From the IMG/VR virus record IMGVR_UViG_3300043803_002450: a stretch of 64,000 nt of DNA. One strand, 5' to 3'. Shown piece by piece: positions 3,401 to 39,454 of the stretch; positions within the stretch are counted from its first letter, which is position 1; each line of letters begins with the position of its first letter. The notes below the pieces were generated by a model, which was given only the letters and a program-made list of their open reading frames with translations, was not told the DNA's origin and did not search any database. Both the position numbers and the translations under genes were made by a program. Source of the stretch: an uncultured virus (IMG/VR IMGVR_UViG_3300043803_002450). Lineage: Duplodnaviria; Heunggongvirae; Uroviricota; Caudoviricetes.

Positions 3401-4598
3401 CGCCTACTTGCGTGTCTACTTTTAAGCCTTGGCTTCGATCGCCTGGTGCAGTTGTCACCTGACCATTTCTTATGTGCTCAACAATTCCGAACTGGCGTGC
3501 ATAGTTGCGTCCCACACCAGCCATCTTGGGGTTGCCGGCGATCTGGAAGCGCTTGGCAACTGGGGTTTGACCAGCCTGTTCTGAGGATGCGCCGGGATAG
3601 GGCACGATTTCCCAGTTAAGGCGGTAGGGCGTGCCGTTCGGCAAGCCGTTGTACACGCCAAAAACGGCGCGATTAGTCAAGGAATAAGCATGGCTAAACC
3701 CTGTGCTTTCCAGGCCGCTAAATGTGTGGTTTCTAAATGCGTTGTCGCGTTCGCCTTCGCCAATCCAGAAATCTCCATAGCGGCGATGGAGTCCCAGAAG
3801 CCTGCTTTGCCCCGTTGTATTTTTGTTACCTTCAAATGTTGCCGGTCGATAGTCAGAGCTATTCGGTACTGGCTCACCGCCGGAGTAGTAATACCAGCGG
3901 AAGTCAGATTCCTGGAGTGCATCAAGAGGAGCTTGGCCGATGTAGATACCAGCGCGGTCTTCGTTGCGGGCTGCTTCTGTGTCGTATGGCCCTCTGGATA
4001 CAGGAGACTGCCCCAGCAAAAAGACCAAGTCGACGGACTGGTAGCTGCCGTGGGAGTACATGCGGCTCCACACCAGCTTGGGGGCGACCATGATGCCGCC
4101 GACGTAGGAAAAGTCGCTGCGGCTGGGAGGGAGCTGAACGTATTTTTGCCTGGCGAAGACAATGGGAATCGTTTCGCCGTAGCGGCTTAGTTCTTGGCTG
4201 GCCTGGAAGCCGTATGTCGGGGCGAAGCGGTCACGGCCGACGATGCTATCTAGTTGCCGGTTTTCAATCCCTTTGGGCGCCGATGGCGGTCTGGGCGCCA
4301 GCAGCAGCGAAAGGCCTTGGGAAACAACGCCGAGGACCAGTGAAATAATCGCAACAGTTAAAGCATCGTTTTGTACGTCTGGAATATGTGCGTACTCCGC
4401 CGGGCGTTCGCGGCTGAGCCAGTCGATGCGTTGCTTGAACTCGAGGTATTCCTGTTCTGTGCAACCCAGCTCTTGAATTAGCTGGCGCTCGTAGGGGAGC
4501 AGTTGCTGCGGTAGCAGCGGAGTGCAGGAAACGCCGTAAGCGGGTGCCAGGTGGCCGCTTGCAGACTGGCTGTTATGTAGAGGATGCCGTCCTGCCAA
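489..4598 (-). CDS. Tail tip / host-specificity protein (lambda J-like central fibre); start uncertain
   Basis: 1369 aa downstream of TMP, L-like and K-like genes; YGETIPIVF N-terminal motif; C-terminal hub region (GLGLAPGDFIRV). Confidence 0.8.
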   Translation of the reverse strand: MAGRHPLHNSQSASGHLAPAYGVSCTPLLPQQLLPYERQLIQELGCTEQEYLEFKQRIDWLSRERPAEYAHIPDVQNDALTVAIISLVLGVVSQGLSLLLAPRPPSAPKGIENRQLDSIVGRDRFAPTYGFQASQELSRYGETIPIVFARQKYVQLPPSRSDFSYVGGIMVAPKLVWSRMYSHGSYQSVDLVFLLGQSPVSRGPYDTEAARNEDRAGIYIGQAPLDALQESDFRWYYYSGGEPVPNSSDYRPATFEGNKNTTGQSRLLGLHRRYGDFWIGEGERDNAFRNHTFSGLESTGFSHAYSLTNRAVFGVYNGLPNGTPYRLNWEIVPYPGASSEQAGQTPVAKRFQIAGNPKMAGVGRNYARQFGIVEHIRNGQVTTAPGDRSQGLKVDTQVGDQITIIYNEGRVRDELYYDNNNPNIVANKNRNTGDGFLYANPDVNAVDNRQVRDAIQAEHEQQDDLLKIGTKWMIGNCIFQVTARNPANTIYDRSDLQPRTVTLVCKEVFDGTVGKVGVCHRGFVNTETNLPEGPDGAIYDIGQAWFPICKADIASFQNSRSCNVTEIGIKSNVWNKLNGICNFKSVPNVTKLRDYDVQNIALTAGTNQSYIQRASFFDVYVRPANQSYAFNQGWEKLNDHPFAVVGSAPQDQFNFIRIAHGFGQYEFRLRPVTSGEINQIRNADGSYTKATINGITVEGPCYRLYVEGAVPYAEGQYISQTKTTNYGLFTLYMMAKPASVKELALAPEMISNPVYQGGASTYTPPPSRVRFLKAVASDALDINANGFRISNGIAKAIDKDPDPRGAEHNTFHGTPVITYFPFNVGGIYTFSESDSTAFRYDQGGRVVRLKMKLRLYTTPENITATNFLSHWWEIVEPDNIEILQLTGSWTGNEVFVIRSLLRNPAITIDYYFQIVAPVPISSPPTLGGERTFEGNVGIAEVSHYANLISRSCDNGPEHEIVYINETVAVRNNSPATYTGCAMAGLKLRSTAELNQLEQLHIYAKNGISVTNLRLTSNGNIVETTSSSNIFTDLAYYLLTNIQTGAGELISSDLIDKAQFARTAMFLEANYLYYDDVIVEPQNLREFLARISTSLLCNLVMRGGKFSIEPALPIDTTRNYTMFDVKVPISGIFTEGNIIEDSFQLEYIQAQERLPIRAMVRYRTELPNRFPQEQTAVVYYTDQPNGPLEEFNFTHITSRYHAELFAKYALSARRHRTHVVSFQTLPYGLGLAPGDFIRVVTQASYVQPGASGIIKDNGAIITPAQLTNGQSVQVYYWDRNDNEVNEDTLTISIVDGQPKANKLFGSIFAIKDTTTRSLVYMVDSIDLDEEGLARISASYFPIDENGYSVVANELKPSYNGFTVVSDLAPD

Positions 4599-28259: not shown

Positions 28260-28274
28260 TGATAGGCTTTATTT

Positions 28275-28326
28275 ACGTTTGCCCCTTGCGGGGTGCATGA
28301 AAGCCATCCAGGAAACGGGGGATGGG
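28275..28326 (+). promoter_or_regulatory. Glutamine-II (Downstream-peptide)-like riboswitch
   Basis: P1 CGTTT/AAACG, P2 GCCCC-TTGC-GGGGT, pseudoknot CCATCC/GGATGG; -10 TGATAGGCT just upstream; short peptide downstream. Confidence 0.7.
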
Positions 28327-28344
28327 GACCATGGAGAAACGCCC

Positions 28345-28449: not shown

Positions 28450-28608
28450 CTACACCCAGCCGCTCTTGTCAATCTGACAGGGGCGGTATTTTTGTCCGCG
28501 ATAGACAAGCCAGCGAGAGGGCAAGTGCAGCAGATTCCACCAGTCCGAAAAAGCTTGGTGCTCTTCTTCAGCCCAATAGGGAACACCTCGATACACAAGC
28601 AAGGTCAT
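28450..28608 (-). CDS. DUF4278-like YRG-motif peptide, 52 aa (absent from the ORF track)
   Basis: MTLLVYRGVPYWAEEEHQAFSDWWNLLHLPSRWLVYRGQKYRPCQIDKSGWV, two LxYRGxxY motifs. Confidence 0.8.
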   Translation of the reverse strand: MTLLVYRGVPYWAEEEHQAFSDWWNLLHLPSRWLVYRGQKYRPCQIDKSGWV

Positions 28609-33366: not shown

Positions 33367-33800
33367 CCCCCTCTACAATATGCTTATGGCGCAGCGTATG
33401 TCTTCTGACAGGCAACGCAGCCACGAAAGGACCGTCACGAGCAGCTCAGCTCCCTTCGCTAGAGCCGCTTCGAGCGGGAGCCCCCAGCGGCTTTTGCATA
33501 GCGGCTCTTCTCAACAACCCTCCTCTCGACTGTTTTCTTTTAAGAAACCTTCGCCAGGAGCCCGTTACGAGAATTAGCCCCAAGCGAACGTTCATAGGGC
33601 TCCCTCTTCACCACCTTCCTTTCAATTCTTCTTTTTCCGGCGAGAGCGTTAGTAAAAGCTGCTGATCGTGTGCGCAGCCACCCTCTGAAAGAAAAAAAAT
33701 CAATACTCTAAAAAAGCAGAAGAAAGCCCCCTGTGACTGAGCTCGCTTGAGGCTCGCTTGCGCGAAGGGGGCTTAAGACAATGGCAAAGAAAATGGTCTT

Positions 33801-33861
33801 TTTACGAACAATACGAGCAATTTACGAACGTGCAGGTAAGTTTATGAACAATGTTCGTAAA
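33801..33861. repeat. Three TTTAYGAAC direct repeats at exact 20-bp period plus one inverted copy
   Basis: Copies at 33801, 33821, 33841; TGTTCGTAAA at 33852. Confidence 0.75.
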
Positions 33862-34167
33862 GGCGTAGTGTCCTCACTCCCTTGCGCAAGCTTTAGATCG
33901 TTCGGACAGTACGCACTAGCCTCCTCCCATTGGGAAAATGATAAAGAGGGGAAAATGTCGTTCAAAAATTACGTCGCTTTTAAGAGGGGTATCCCGCGCC
34001 CGTCGTCGAATGGGGTCCTTGTTACTGCGCTGTGATAAGGATTCTTGATCGATCAGCGGTTCTGATGCGTTACATTGTCAGGATTTGCTGACTTTCATGG
34101 GGATTCTCCCTCTCCAAACCATAAAGATAGGCGCCCACTATAAAGTAGGCGCCCAACTGTTCACAGC

Positions 34168-35076
34168 CTAAGCAATACAAAAGGCCCTTTTATCGGCGTC
34201 AGTGTAGCTGATACCGTGGGGAAGCTTAAACCTTAAGCCAACAATCCAACCGGTAGGATCAAACGGCCTGAAGTCTGACAAATCGCCATCATAGACGGGC
34301 AAAAGACGCCCAGTTTGTTGATCAGTGGGCAAAAGATTAAAGGCTGTGACATCAACAAAGGGAGGCAGTTCTTGACCGCGCTTTAAGTTAAAAGCGGCCG
34401 CTACGTTAATGCCATTCTGCAAAGCATCGCGGCAAAGTTTAACATTTGCGGCATTTTCCCAACCGTCAAAGCTGAACGTTAGATGATAGCCGAGCCGCCT
34501 ACATTCCGCCCAGTTACGCTTGATTTTAGTGTAATCATAGAACTTTACACTTAGGCTAGGATTATCTGCCATTAGGCAATTAAACAGCTCAAAGATATTG
34601 CGCTGGCCAATAGGCAGCTCATGGCCAAACTTACGGCGGCAGAATGTAGAAAATTCAGCGTCAACCGTAAAGTCTACATTCTCCCACACTATATCAGACG
34701 TTCCATTCAGCCTGAGAGCAATAGGAGCGCCGCTATTCTTGTTAACTTTGTCGAGAATAGCGCAAACAAGCAAACGGGCGAACCGCCGTTTGTCTGCAGA
34801 GAATGCTAGGGTGCGCCTAATTCTGGCGGCTTGTTTGTTTGTCATGTAGACGGGATTCCCGGCGAAGTGTAAACAGATCTTTTTACAATTACCAGCACCG
34901 GGGCAAACGTTGATGCCTGACGTATCGGCCGGGGACAAATGCAGAATGTAGGTTTGAACGTGGCTCTTTTCAGTTTTAGGATTTGTCGACAACAAAGTCT
35001 TGTGATCAATCCTATATTGTTTGGCCATGGATGCCAGATTGGCCGGAAACTTAGCGCGCGAATTAAGAGTTTGCAT
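34168..35076 (-). CDS. Gp88-like phage protein, probable Fe-S / radical-SAM-like fold
   Basis: CPGAGNCKKIC, RLNGTSD, FYDYTK, YHLTFS, GDLSDFR..D...IVGL..K motifs. Confidence 0.8.
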   Translation of the reverse strand: MQTLNSRAKFPANLASMAKQYRIDHKTLLSTNPKTEKSHVQTYILHLSPADTSGINVCPGAGNCKKICLHFAGNPVYMTNKQAARIRRTLAFSADKRRFARLLVCAILDKVNKNSGAPIALRLNGTSDIVWENVDFTVDAEFSTFCRRKFGHELPIGQRNIFELFNCLMADNPSLSVKFYDYTKIKRNWAECRRLGYHLTFSFDGWENAANVKLCRDALQNGINVAAAFNLKRGQELPPFVDVTAFNLLPTDQQTGRLLPVYDGDLSDFRPFDPTGWIVGLRFKLPHGISYTDADKRAFCIA

Positions 35077-35080
35077 GATT

Positions 35081-35107
35081 AGAAAGAAAGAAAGAAAGAA
35101 AGAAAGA
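35081..35107. repeat. (AAAG)6 microsatellite in the 5' leader of the Gp88-like gene
   Basis: AG(AAAG)6A, ending 4 nt before the ATG on minus. Confidence 0.9.
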
Positions 35108-35610
35108 TTAAAAAGAAAGGAAGCCTAGAAAGATTCGCTCGGTTCGTCCCATGCCACACGGTGACCCTTGACGGTTTGCCTGTATTGGATCGGCGGCAGA
35201 GAAGCCCCACGGCCGCTTGTGGGAGGCAGTGGCGGCATGGTCTCGCCAGGAAGAACAGGGCGGCGCCATTGCGGCCGATCGGCTGGGAGGCCATTAGGGC
35301 CCATGGCCCAGAAGCCTAGAAGCTGGGAATCGTTGGTTTGCATGGTTTGGCGGGATTGTGGGATGTCGGCCGATCGCTCGTCCGATGCCACGAAGCATAC
35401 CGGCAGGAATGGCGCAACGTATCGGCAAAGTGTGCCGGTTTAAAAAGCGGCCACTAACCAGCGCCGTTGTGTTGACAGCATGGGCGCCCATAGGGTAGGC
35501 GCAGCAAACCGGCAGACAATGGCACCAGATAAAGGATCCGCGCACGCGCGCGCGCCTACCATGAGACTGGCGAGACTGCGCAAGTCTTTACATTTGGTCA
35601 CAATGGAGCG

Positions 35611-35862
35611 GCTTGATTGTTGATTGTCTATCTTTTGCACTTGCAATCAGTTGCTAATTGTTTGCGCTAGCAAAGCGTGATTAATTGTTGATTGTTTGCA
35701 GGATTGTTTGCAATTAATTGTTGATTCTTTATCCGTCAAAGTGTGATCAATTGTTGATTATTTTATTGCCACAGAATGCAATTAATTGTTGATTATTTAC
35801 AGCGAGCTTTTGAGATTAATTGTTGATTATTTATTTCGTGCAATTGCGGCTAATTGTTGATA
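35611..35862. repeat. Interspaced array: 8 units, 33-35 bp period, core ATTAATTGTTGATT
   Basis: Core positions 35615, 35649, 35683, 35716, 35749, 35784, 35818, 35852, separated by unrelated 10-12-nt segments. Confidence 0.9.
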
Positions 35863-35951
35863 AAAACAAACAATAGAAAACTATTGAGAACGCTTCTCAT
35901 TTGCACTATGTCTCAAGACTCATAGAAGCAACTGACAACAGTTCGCAATAG

Positions 35952-36036
35952 CAATACGCCTCCAGCCGGGTCCAATACGCTTCCGGCCGGATCTTGATAC
36001 AACCCTGGCCGGGCCCAATACAACTTCAGCCGGACC
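35952..36036. repeat. Four tandem 21-bp imperfect repeats (CAATAC...GCCGG...), iteron-like
   Basis: Units start at 35952, 35973, 35995, 36016. Confidence 0.85.
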
Positions 36037-36039
36037 TTA

Positions 36040-37447
36040 TCACCAGCCCTTGCGCTCCCGAGCCGCCTCAATGGCGGCTTTTTCGTCTTCATACGGCCCT
36101 CCCACTTCATCTCCATCGTCTTCATACCAATACCAGCCCTCGAGCAGTTCTGTGCCCTTACAGCAGGCCTCTGCGAAATAGTCGATGAGAATCATTGCGC
36201 TTGCTCCTGGAGCCTGTTCCACATCCATTGCTCTCTGGTGTTAGGGCGCATCAGCTCGTAGCCCTCATGGTCAACGATGCTGTCACCAGCGCTATTTACG
36301 TGGCCTTCCAGTTCGCGGTGCCAGAGGCCCTTGCAGGCGCCTTCTGCGTCGAAGATGGCAATCGTGTCTTCCCTGTCTTCCATGGCCAGGCGCACGTGCC
36401 TGATGAGGTCTGATAAGCGAGCTGCTTGGTAGCAGCCTTTTGTTGCCGGGAAATAGGGGCCATTGTCCTGATAGGTGCAAACAGTGATCATTCTTCGTCT
36501 CCAGAAAGTTCAATGATGGAATAGTTGGAGCCTGCAGTTTCGTAGATCATGACAAGCTCGTCGCGTTCTTTTTCTGACTGAGCATAATCTTCATAGCCTT
36601 GATCATCTTTGAACAGCCAGACAATGGAAGAGGAAGTCATCAGTCGTTCTCCACAATGAGAAAGTCGGGGTCGTTGTCTTTCTTGATCCAGCGGCATTGA
36701 TTGAACTGCGGCAGTACGATAAAAAGCTTGTCGTGGTGATTCTGTTCAACAATGGCAGTGGTGATGGTGGCGCCGATGCGGCTACGGCCTCTGTTGCTAA
36801 TGGCCAGAAGGTTAATGGTTTCCATCATGCTGCCTCCTGAGCCCCTTCCCTTTCCCATCGAAGCACTGTTGCAACAATTTTGTCGCTAGTGGGATCGATC
36901 AGGCGGGAAGCCATGAAAGTTGAGCGTGCCAGGGAGAAGCTGCCATCAGGGGCTTTGGTGAGCAGGGATGCTCCAGGCAGGCTCAAGATGTCGCCAGGCT
37001 TGGCATCACAAAGGAAATGAGCAATGGTCCAAGCGAGCTGGTCTTCGCGGAAGGAGGAAGTCATGGCAGGAAAGAGAGAGTGGTGAAGCTCGCGCCTCGT
37101 TGAATGAATGATATATCGAGAGAGGCCCCTGGAAAGGGGCCTGTAACAAAGCTTCATGCTTCTTTTTCAACACGGTCGATGGCAAAATCAGGATGGAGCT
37201 TCCGGCAGATAGCAGCGGCTTGACTGGCGGAATAAGCCATATATGCCAAGGCGTAATAACGCTCGTGACGCTTATCCCAGCCATGGCAGATAAATTTGCG
37301 CTCAGGCACCCAGACCTTTTTGATGATGTAGTGAGGGCGGGAATCCTTTACGTGCTGCTCGGCTTCGACGGCATGGTTCGCATCGATTACAAGCTCACAC
37401 TGGCCGCCGTTGCGGCTGTTGGTGCAAAGAACGGAGAAGGTGATCAT
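36040..37447 (-). other. Block of short putative early genes (about six ORFs of 50-100 aa)
   Basis: Tightly coupled minus-strand ORFs with ATGA overlaps downstream of repeated promoters. Confidence 0.6.
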
Positions 37448-38603: not shown

Positions 38604-38655
38604 AAATTAGACGGGAGCAGCGCCAAAGTCAAGCCTTGTTACAAAGCTTCACGAT
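38604..38655 (-). promoter_or_regulatory. Sigma70-type promoter with upstream HLR1-like box
   Basis: TTGACT-17 bp-TAATTT on minus; GTTACAAA-GC-TTCACGAT at 38638-38655. Confidence 0.7.
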
Positions 38656-38666
38656 TGTCGCGGTGG

Positions 38667-39454
38667 TCACATTTGGTCCATGATGCCCATCAGGATTTGC
38701 TCCACATAGGCCTTGGCGTCGCGAAGCTTGGTCAGGGCCTCATCGCGCTCGTCACGGGCCTGATAAAAAGCGTCCGTGCCCTGTGGATAGAAATCGCGCC
38801 CGTTGCAAGTGGTGGTCACCAGGGCGTCAATAGCGGCGTCAACCGCCTTGTAGGCAGCATGGTATTCAGCGTAAAGCGTTTTGGAGCCAGTGCCGTTGAG
38901 GTGGATGGTGGGGATGGTTGCCACGGGAAGAGGGTTCGGAGGGTTCGGAGGGTTCAGAGAGGGTCACCAAGCAGCCATGGGCAGCTCTTCAGCGCGGCAG
39001 TTCACTTCGCTGTTATGCACTTCTGCAAACAGGGCATAGCGGTCGCGCATGATATAGCAAGCAGCCTCAGGATCCACTGCATCAATGGTGGCCGTCTCAA
39101 AGCGGATGTACTCCTTGTCAGTGCCCCAGGGAATGGAGGCGTACACGCGATAGGTGCGGACGATGGGAGGGAAAATGGTGGTCATTGTCCGATGAGGATG
39201 GTGGACCTCGCGGCCCGTTGCAAGTAATGTACAGGCAGGAGGGGCCTGGTCAGCCCCTCCGTAACAATTGTTTACAAACGCCCTGGGCTCTGTGTGCCCT
39301 GCACCACCATGAAGACCTTGGTGGCAAACACGGCCTGCAGGCTTCGGGCCTGGCGCTCGAGGGCATTACGATCGGCGCTGGAATCAAGAAGGCTCCAGCA
39401 ACTGTCAGTCAAGGCCCAGAGGCTCCAGACGCTGTCGCGCTCGAGGACTGCCAT
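38667..39454 (-). other. Three short hypothetical early genes (38667-38924, 38964-39185, 39272-39454)
   Basis: Phage-like codon usage and pyrimidine-rich leaders; 9-bp AGGGTTCRG x3 repeat at 38931-38957. Confidence 0.6.

Follow-up and report, generated by a model that had tools for sequence, protein, structure and literature searches.

The slot and its virus

The window is the whole 64,000-nucleotide stretch of viral DNA that was analysed. By sequence comparison the virus is an S-CBS4-like cyanosiphovirus: its TerL is 62% identical to that of Synechococcus phage S-CBS4, and the gene order also agrees. It infects freshwater cyanobacteria, and lake-water metagenomes contain DNA near-identical to the window. 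A regularly spaced repeat array lies in a non-coding gap, with a GP88-family gene on one side and a run of small minus-strand genes on the other (Table 1). This slot is limited by an RpaB/HLR1 box at one side and by an iteron-like quartet, a motif in four copies, at the other.

Table 1. Features of the slot and its flanks, with positions in the window
Feature	Position	Strand	Remarks
GP88-family gene (PF17338)	34168..35076	-	profile match
Operator-like imperfect palindrome GTG-N19-CAC	35430..35454	.	kept in relatives, by direct inspection
Left boundary	35472..35562	.	TTGACA, invariant A.GGTA, GCGCG tract at 35540-35555
-10-like TACCCT	35492-35497	-	at the invariant A.GGTA of the left boundary
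-10-like TACCAT	35557-35562		in the left boundary
HLR1 (RpaB) box TTTACATT-TG-GTCACAAT	35587..35604	+	1 mismatch to KTTACAWW-N2-KTTACAWW (available part of PMC13421787)
Eight-unit array, period 33-35 bp	35613..35862	+	unit is YAATTSTTDATTVTTWA, then ~5 free bases, then CAARGTGCRAT
Fur/Zur-like palindrome TGAGAACGCTTCTCA	35885..35899	.	2 mismatches
Quartet ATAC-N6-RGCCGG, spacing 21/22/21	35954..36033	+	iteron-like
62-aa ORF	36040..36228	-	bounds the slot on the right throughout the clade
Terminator-like hairpin	36060..36080	+	within the 3' end of the 62-aa ORF

Contigs from public sequencing runs bridge the array with zero differences in three of four runs (X1, X3 and X6; X1 is possibly the source), so the array is not an assembly artefact. 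Contig depth left versus right of the array was 15.9 versus 10.8 in X1, 6.9 versus 2-5 in X9, 31 versus 25 in X6, and flat in X3; depth is one figure per contig, the gp88 side is common to co-occurring strains, and these values carry no weight.

An integrase match is present in the window and in five of ten complete relatives; the integrase search of prokaryote genomes gave no match. The corresponding capsid search gave five contigs, all in non-cyanobacterial MAGs. These are probably mis-binned, and therefore no host is named from them. The TerS candidate has no name in the Atlas, and its sole lead is DUF5843-like.

Other features were seen near the slot and further off. An (AGAA)n microsatellite (35081-35123) lies immediately upstream of the gp88 start, and its copy number differs among close strains. 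Downstream of gp88 is a second long non-coding gap with terminator-like hairpins (33370-34165). The window's only Rfam match, a glutamine-II riboswitch (+ strand; 28273-28327), lies near small minus-strand ORFs at 28450-28608, one of which we take to be DUF4278-like. Two further HLR1-like boxes (38638-38655 and 39261-39278) sit between small early-type genes.

Anatomy of the 34-bp array

The core TTAATTGTTGATT matches with 0-2 mismatches at 35613, 35681, 35714, 35747, 35782, 35816 and 35850, and a more degenerate unit lies at ~35647. Successive intervals are 34, 34, 33, 33, 35, 34 and 34 bp. The whole window contains 12 core matches against 1.66 expected, a number reached by 0 of 100 shuffles. 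The eight-unit interspaced array of ~34-bp period described in the sequence-only reading is thus borne out. That reading also took the intervening 10-12 nt to be unrelated. This holds for about 6 nt but not for the rest: the first 17 nt of the seven complete units have a mean pairwise identity of 0.81, the following 6 nt one of 0.21, and the final 11 nt, a conserved tail, one of 0.50. An odd/even (67-68 bp) pattern is weak, with last-8 identity of 0.65 between units of the same parity (n = 9) and 0.51 between units of opposite parity (n = 12).

The array is 68% A+T and non-coding; every one of its six frames contains 5-7 stops. In ATYAA-N3-TTRAT the two variable positions, Y and R, pair with each other across the centre of symmetry. 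This symmetry, the steady 33-35 bp period, and the conservation of both core and tail support the half of the sequence-only reading that proposed a protein scaffold. A 34-bp period is 3.2 helical turns, so the sites rotate round the helix. Such rotation would fit side-by-side footprints better than the in-phase iteron binding that the quartet does show.

No match to the RpaB, SphR, LexA or NtcA consensus was found inside 35613-35862, with one HLR1 box adjoining the array, and the window's slot contains no LexA box. LysR T-N11-A, IHF, FNR, RbcR, ArsR and a tandem promoter were compared with the unit by eye; none fits both core variants described below.

A hypervariable slot with the array as one of its alleles

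The same slot holds the 34-bp module in 17 other loci of the clade. Across these and the window, 119 intervals measure 34 bp in 89 cases, 33 in 23, 35 in 5 and 32 in 2; the 18 arrays are related (~7 families), only 32-36 bp was permitted, and ties in the unit walker were broken toward 34. The 80 distinct 34-mers from these arrays have a variable stretch at about positions 18-23, then a conserved CAAR-TGCRAT tail.

Scanning for a two-unit pattern gave 32 viral matches. Half of them (16) belong to the S-CBS4-like clade and lie in the slot every time, one being 100% identical to the window (L370). Three are T4-like and four T7-like cyanophages, and nine are unrelated (seven simple 11-bp repeats and two chance matches). 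A metagenome scan for the module gave 29 matches, of which 13 are from the clade, again always in the slot, and nine have no match to window proteins.

Five close strains keep the same spacers and differ by duplication or deletion of whole units, giving 7, 8 or 9 units. Exact duplicate units are present in the arrays of L393 and L400. Core variants differ by lineage (TTGTTGATT versus TTCTTTATT) at a constant period, and in L078 the 34-bp module is joined to another left half; together these indicate module swapping. A nearby HLR1, LexA, NtcA-like or Fur-like box accompanies 12 of the 18 arrays.

In the clade at large the 34-bp module is a minority allele, accounting for three arrays among 73 non-redundant slots, window counted. 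The 300-800 bp between the slot anchors contain different repeats in each lineage, with periods of 8, 10, 16, 26, 29, 34, 38 and 46 bp. The window's array represents one of the alleles that this hypervariable non-coding slot can hold.

Members of the clade can do without the array. Ten near-complete genomes contain only four core matches in total, yet each of them retains the quartet, the TerS candidate, XRE and primase. The GP88-like gene, which the earlier reading named as the nearest candidate partner, is not supported in that role: the array is absent from most gp88-bearing relatives, gp88 variants at array-bearing loci range from 31% to 100% identity, and 10 loci (two duplicate pairs included) span the slot with no gp88 match. 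By these comparisons the GP88-family gene appears to be a swappable neighbour, not tied to the array.

A conserved frame surrounds the slot

The quartet is the constant element. ATAC-N6-RGCCGG has four matches in the window against 0.21 expected, all of them in the quartet, and a quartet cluster is present in 10 of 10 near-complete relatives. A doublet of the motif was found in 101 viral stretches; 74 of the 77 long-flanked ones match window proteins and are syntenic. Motif spacings number 201 in all; most (162) measure 21-23 bp, and another 29 measure 31 or 33 bp. The quartet is probably bound by a phage protein. For the origin or packaging site of the clade it is the leading candidate. A diverged version occurs in the close strains L001/L012, L002/L013 and L014. 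L053 (oriented 1700-2270, 3850-4480) has two complete control regions 2.2 kb apart, each with a quartet and an HLR1-type array.

At the left boundary, a single pattern finds the GCGCG tract and promoter-like motifs in 34 of 59 sufficiently long loci. The motifs suggest a possible divergent promoter pair, which a sigma-70 scan of the left boundary did not detect. No consensus RNA structure was found at the left boundary across relatives.

Relatives fill the slot with boxes for host regulators

Consensi for cyanobacterial regulators were drawn from the available parts of published papers: the SphR Pho box is CTTAACCT three times with a 3-bp linker (PMC1906773), the LexA box AGTACWNWTGTACT (PMC3091678), the NtcA box GTA-N8-TAC (PMC6331805) and the RpaB HLR1 consensus KTTACAWW-N2-KTTACAWW (PMC13421787); PMC11126600 was a further source. 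Boxes were counted in the 73 non-redundant slots, reduced from 117, with shuffles and right flanks as controls. The LexA box AGTAC-N4-GTACT is present in 42 slots, at 64 sites, and HLR1 in 8 slots, at 12 sites; shuffles gave 0.00 for each of the two. Pho doublets are present in 4 slots, where 48 overlapping matches compare with 0.15 after shuffling, and NtcA boxes in 6, against 0.70 after shuffling. Fur/Zur-like boxes occur in 17 slots in better copies than the window's. Controls gave 0-0.7 in shuffles and 0-1 in right flanks. Overall, the slot is enriched in published host boxes over both.

The regulator motifs were picked post hoc, with the slot sequences already inspected, and a separate Pho-box scan was therefore performed. 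Three perfect Pho (SphR) boxes at an 11-bp period were found in 13 viral contigs, and in 12 of these they lie in the slot of the S-CBS4-like clade. Such slots carry 4-19 exact units with variable linkers, often interleaved with LexA boxes. SphR requires three Pho boxes (PMC1906773, available part), a number that most of these arrays far exceed. The phage-common LexA variant is found letter for letter in three of five picocyanobacterial genomes.

Further modules were noted in individual slots. In L460-L472 up to 19 exact consensus Pho boxes are interleaved with LexA boxes, and these arrays are the cleanest bait for titration tests. The slot module of L056 (1-150) consists of tandem NtcA-like boxes. 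Unassigned slot repeats (TAGCACGAGATGCTA, GATACGRATxCGTATC and RAAGAACTGGC) are found in L019, L028 and L032, in L022, L036 and L074, and in L067 and L075, and may be sites for other host proteins. The GATACG motif is also present in podovirus L368.

The unit recurs in other cyanophage families

The T4-like cyanophage matches to the two-unit pattern carry baseplate genes (gp25 68% to Sf-FR1), and the T7-like matches include an RNA polymerase 67% to NATL1A-7 and a non-coding match to S-RIP1. The period in these seven cyanophages is 34 bp in six and 33 bp in one, and the motif is clustered at a single place per contig in all six contigs checked. L412 contains another 34-bp array, near a phrog_2554 gene. 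As the unit is common to three phage families, its binder would most simply be a host protein. Sharing across the families could reflect horizontal exchange.

In the T7-like cyanophages the units lie at or near genome ends. Podovirus units sit between TerL and early genes, the interval that in P-SSP7 contains a 206-bp terminal repeat (PMC3350473, available part). In podovirus L368 they flank a CCCCC-N3-GGGGG hairpin resembling one in the P-SSP7 DTR. The array itself was found in neither the P-SSP7 nor the Syn5 end regions, nor in any of nine cultured cyanophage records (0/9), and a blastn search of cultured phages with the array yielded a single weak match.

A different motif was seen in T4-like cyanophages. 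L372 (2850-4000) and L416-L423 share a non-coding GGAAACGTTTATAGCTTAG...GGTACTTTTT motif by the baseplate cluster; in L372, AT-rich repeats extend for ~1.1 kb beyond it. In S-SZBM1 the record stops ~40 bp past this motif; the available part of its description calls the genome just 'circularly permuted' (PMC9146016). The available parts of PMC10665884 and PMC6157547 contain nothing on the slot locus.

Record ends also bear on the slot. The S-CBS4 record NC_016766.1 starts and stops mid-gene, homologs of both genes flank the 4-kb window region, and the record does not contain ~4 kb around the slot. Part of the genome is probably missing from this reference. In pelagiphages and cluster A mycobacteriophages, GP88-like genes sit close to the ends of the records. 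In ten near-complete relatives the record ends are arbitrary, in unrelated genes. GC skew at fourfold sites does not flip across the quartet (-0.33 versus -0.30), a measure silent on rolling-circle origins. The breaks in the S-CBS4 record and the position of GP88-like genes are at most suggestive of a genome terminus or origin at the slot; contig depth, record ends and skew give no support.

Search for the unit in host genomes

The core occurs in 1/28, 17/46, 0/4 and 3/45 picocyanobacterial genomes (123 genomes, four genera; the virus host may differ). An apparent host enrichment in the second set was rejected, since 9 of 21 matches are bicA coding sequence and the rest are scattered. No orthologous promoter with the core was found in the 123 genomes, and HLR1 was likewise not above its control. 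The likeliest reading of a 34-bp unit is a single footprint of an AT-rich-recognising picocyanobacterial protein. The conserved quartet and the host boxes in relatives' slots, neither of which the sequence-only reading noticed, argue for such a host binder rather than TerS, XRE or Gp88.

Discussion

We propose that a host protein binds the array, which would then serve as a decoy or a roadblock within early non-coding DNA, and we give this proposal an even chance. The array would be one interchangeable module of a hypervariable cassette, where S-CBS4-like cyanophages multiply binding sites for DNA-binding proteins of the host. Many bound copies would then lie on early, possibly terminal, phage DNA and be multiplied by replication. 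The array would titrate the host protein as a decoy; alternatively, it would form a nucleoprotein barrier that separates the early promoters from the phage's own quartet. The anatomy of the array, its synteny, the swapping of modules, the identity of sister modules with published host boxes and the recurrence in other cyanophage families are all directly observed. Binding, a host origin for the binder and a decoy or roadblock effect are what these features would imply. Several observations weigh against the proposal. The unit matches no verifiable regulator box, no orthologous host promoter carries it (a weak test, with HLR1 not above control), titrating activators such as SphR and NtcA is of no obvious use to a phage, and the array is missing from all nine cultured records.

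A broader form of this idea, which we hold tentatively, is that the slot is a natural, evolvable DNA-sponge cassette, a hot spot in early or terminal DNA. Arrays for SphR, RpaB, LexA, NtcA and Fur would be amplified there and swapped in and out to rewire the host without a protein, and the 34-bp array would be one such bait. Its target among picocyanobacterial DNA-binding proteins would perhaps be an anti-phage sensor, or else a protein that silences foreign AT-rich DNA.

Instead, binding of host regulators within the slot could directly control the early promoters on its flanks, or transcription that runs into the quartet. This would tie the lysis/lysogeny or replication decision to the phosphate, light, iron and DNA-damage state of the host, with the 34-bp array as the input of another signal. 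The slot does have promoter-like motifs on one side and the quartet on the other, the LexA boxes seen in 42 of the 73 slots suit SOS induction, and integrase matches occur in the window and half of the complete relatives. However, the sites are 100-450 bp from the leftward -10-like motif, beyond the RpaB range of -66 to +23 (PMC13421787, available part), up to 19 exact Pho units are more than activation requires, and the window's slot is one without a LexA box. We regard this explanation as unlikely, though a serious contender.

Near-neutral minisatellite growth in a recombination-prone terminal region, with real operators amplified by slippage and no added function, much like the short repeats by the T7 terminal repeat, is improbable. 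It would account for slot contents and periods (8-46 bp) that vary by lineage, for unit numbers that differ among close strains and for the exact duplicates in L393 and L400. The mid-gene breaks of the S-CBS4 record on either side of the region, and similar small motifs in the P-SSP7 and Syn5 terminal repeats, are also consistent with it. Against it, the amplified units coincide with regulator boxes, cores are conserved while linkers are free, and the 34-bp period recurs in three phage families.

About as improbable is a scaffold or unwinding element for phage proteins, in which a terminase or primase-helicase acts on the quartet and the AT-rich array is the region that is cut, bent or melted. 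The quartet, with its two- or three-turn spacing, does adjoin a 68% A+T tract, and GP88-like genes do lie near record ends in other phages. Most of the clade has no array, however, and replacement fillers go down to 41-50% A+T. The skew does not flip across the quartet, and TerS and TerL are ~10 kb distant. A phage scaffold suits the quartet better than the array.

Processing of a transcript of the array into ~34-nt guide-like RNAs, the undescribed RNA array of the sequence-only reading, is hardly credible: the -10-like TACCAT at 35557 and the terminator-like hairpin at 36060 could delimit a ~500-nt transcript, but the spacers have a consensus and are inherited unchanged by close relatives, units duplicate and delete, folding of the array does not differ from shuffles on either strand (z = -0.23 and +0.58), and there is no Rfam match at the array. 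The same reading had set CRISPR aside, rightly so. Acquired spacers of at least 20 nt with turnover are not seen, since only ~5-6 of 34 positions are free and the five close strains inherit their spacers. No cas cluster was found among the window proteins scanned (sets of 40 and 22), which gave one weak PHROG match on an exonuclease.

Returning to the decoy or roadblock array, cyanophages reprogram their hosts via auxiliary genes. Arrays of bare binding sites, if they act as proposed, would reprogram the host without proteins and would escape gene annotation. The slot further amounts to a ready catalogue of baits for picocyanobacterial DNA-binding proteins. Because several of its modules match known regulators, the unmatched ones, the 34-bp unit included, should capture new DNA-binding proteins. 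Separately, the quartet is a concrete candidate for the site at which a widespread clade of freshwater phages starts replication or packaging.

Comparison with known systems

CRISPR arrays and mini-arrays likewise have conserved blocks at regular spacing. The window array differs in its ~5 free bases, inherited spacers, lack of a visible cas cluster and lack of a repeat-hairpin signal.

Iteron origins include lambda ori and P1 oriR. The window quartet resembles these in its four direct repeats at helical spacing beside an AT-rich tract, whereas the slot has no known initiator and no skew flip, and its AT-rich part is not conserved.

The T7 terminal repeat is adjoined by short SRL/SRR repeats. 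Like the window slot, the terminal-repeat regions of T7-like phages (P-SSP7, 206-bp DTR; Syn5, 237-bp DTR) are non-coding, repeat-rich and beside small early-type genes. The P-SSP7/Syn5 regions and the slot have GCGCG, TATTGAGAA and GCATATG motifs in common, of which GCGCG and TATTGAGAA are in the Syn5 repeat. In contrast, the window virus is a siphovirus with another terminase.

Decoy sites and DNA sponges (PMC7686491; see also PMC8599769 and PMC3322331) share with the array tandem sites, free linkers, a position off the core promoter and an element whose copy number rises. The known ones are synthetic or chromosomal. The word 'phage' does not appear in the available part of PMC7686491. Among the accessible papers on S-CBS4 and on phage decoy or sponge sites, a body from which subscription papers are largely absent, none was seen to describe a phage with arrays of this kind.

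As for cyanobacterial regulator boxes, sister alleles of the slot match the SphR, LexA, RpaB and NtcA consensi, and in the window an HLR1 box adjoins the array, whereas the 34-bp unit itself matches no published consensus for these four regulators. Host promoters carry few copies of such boxes, whereas the phage slot carries them as long, swappable arrays.
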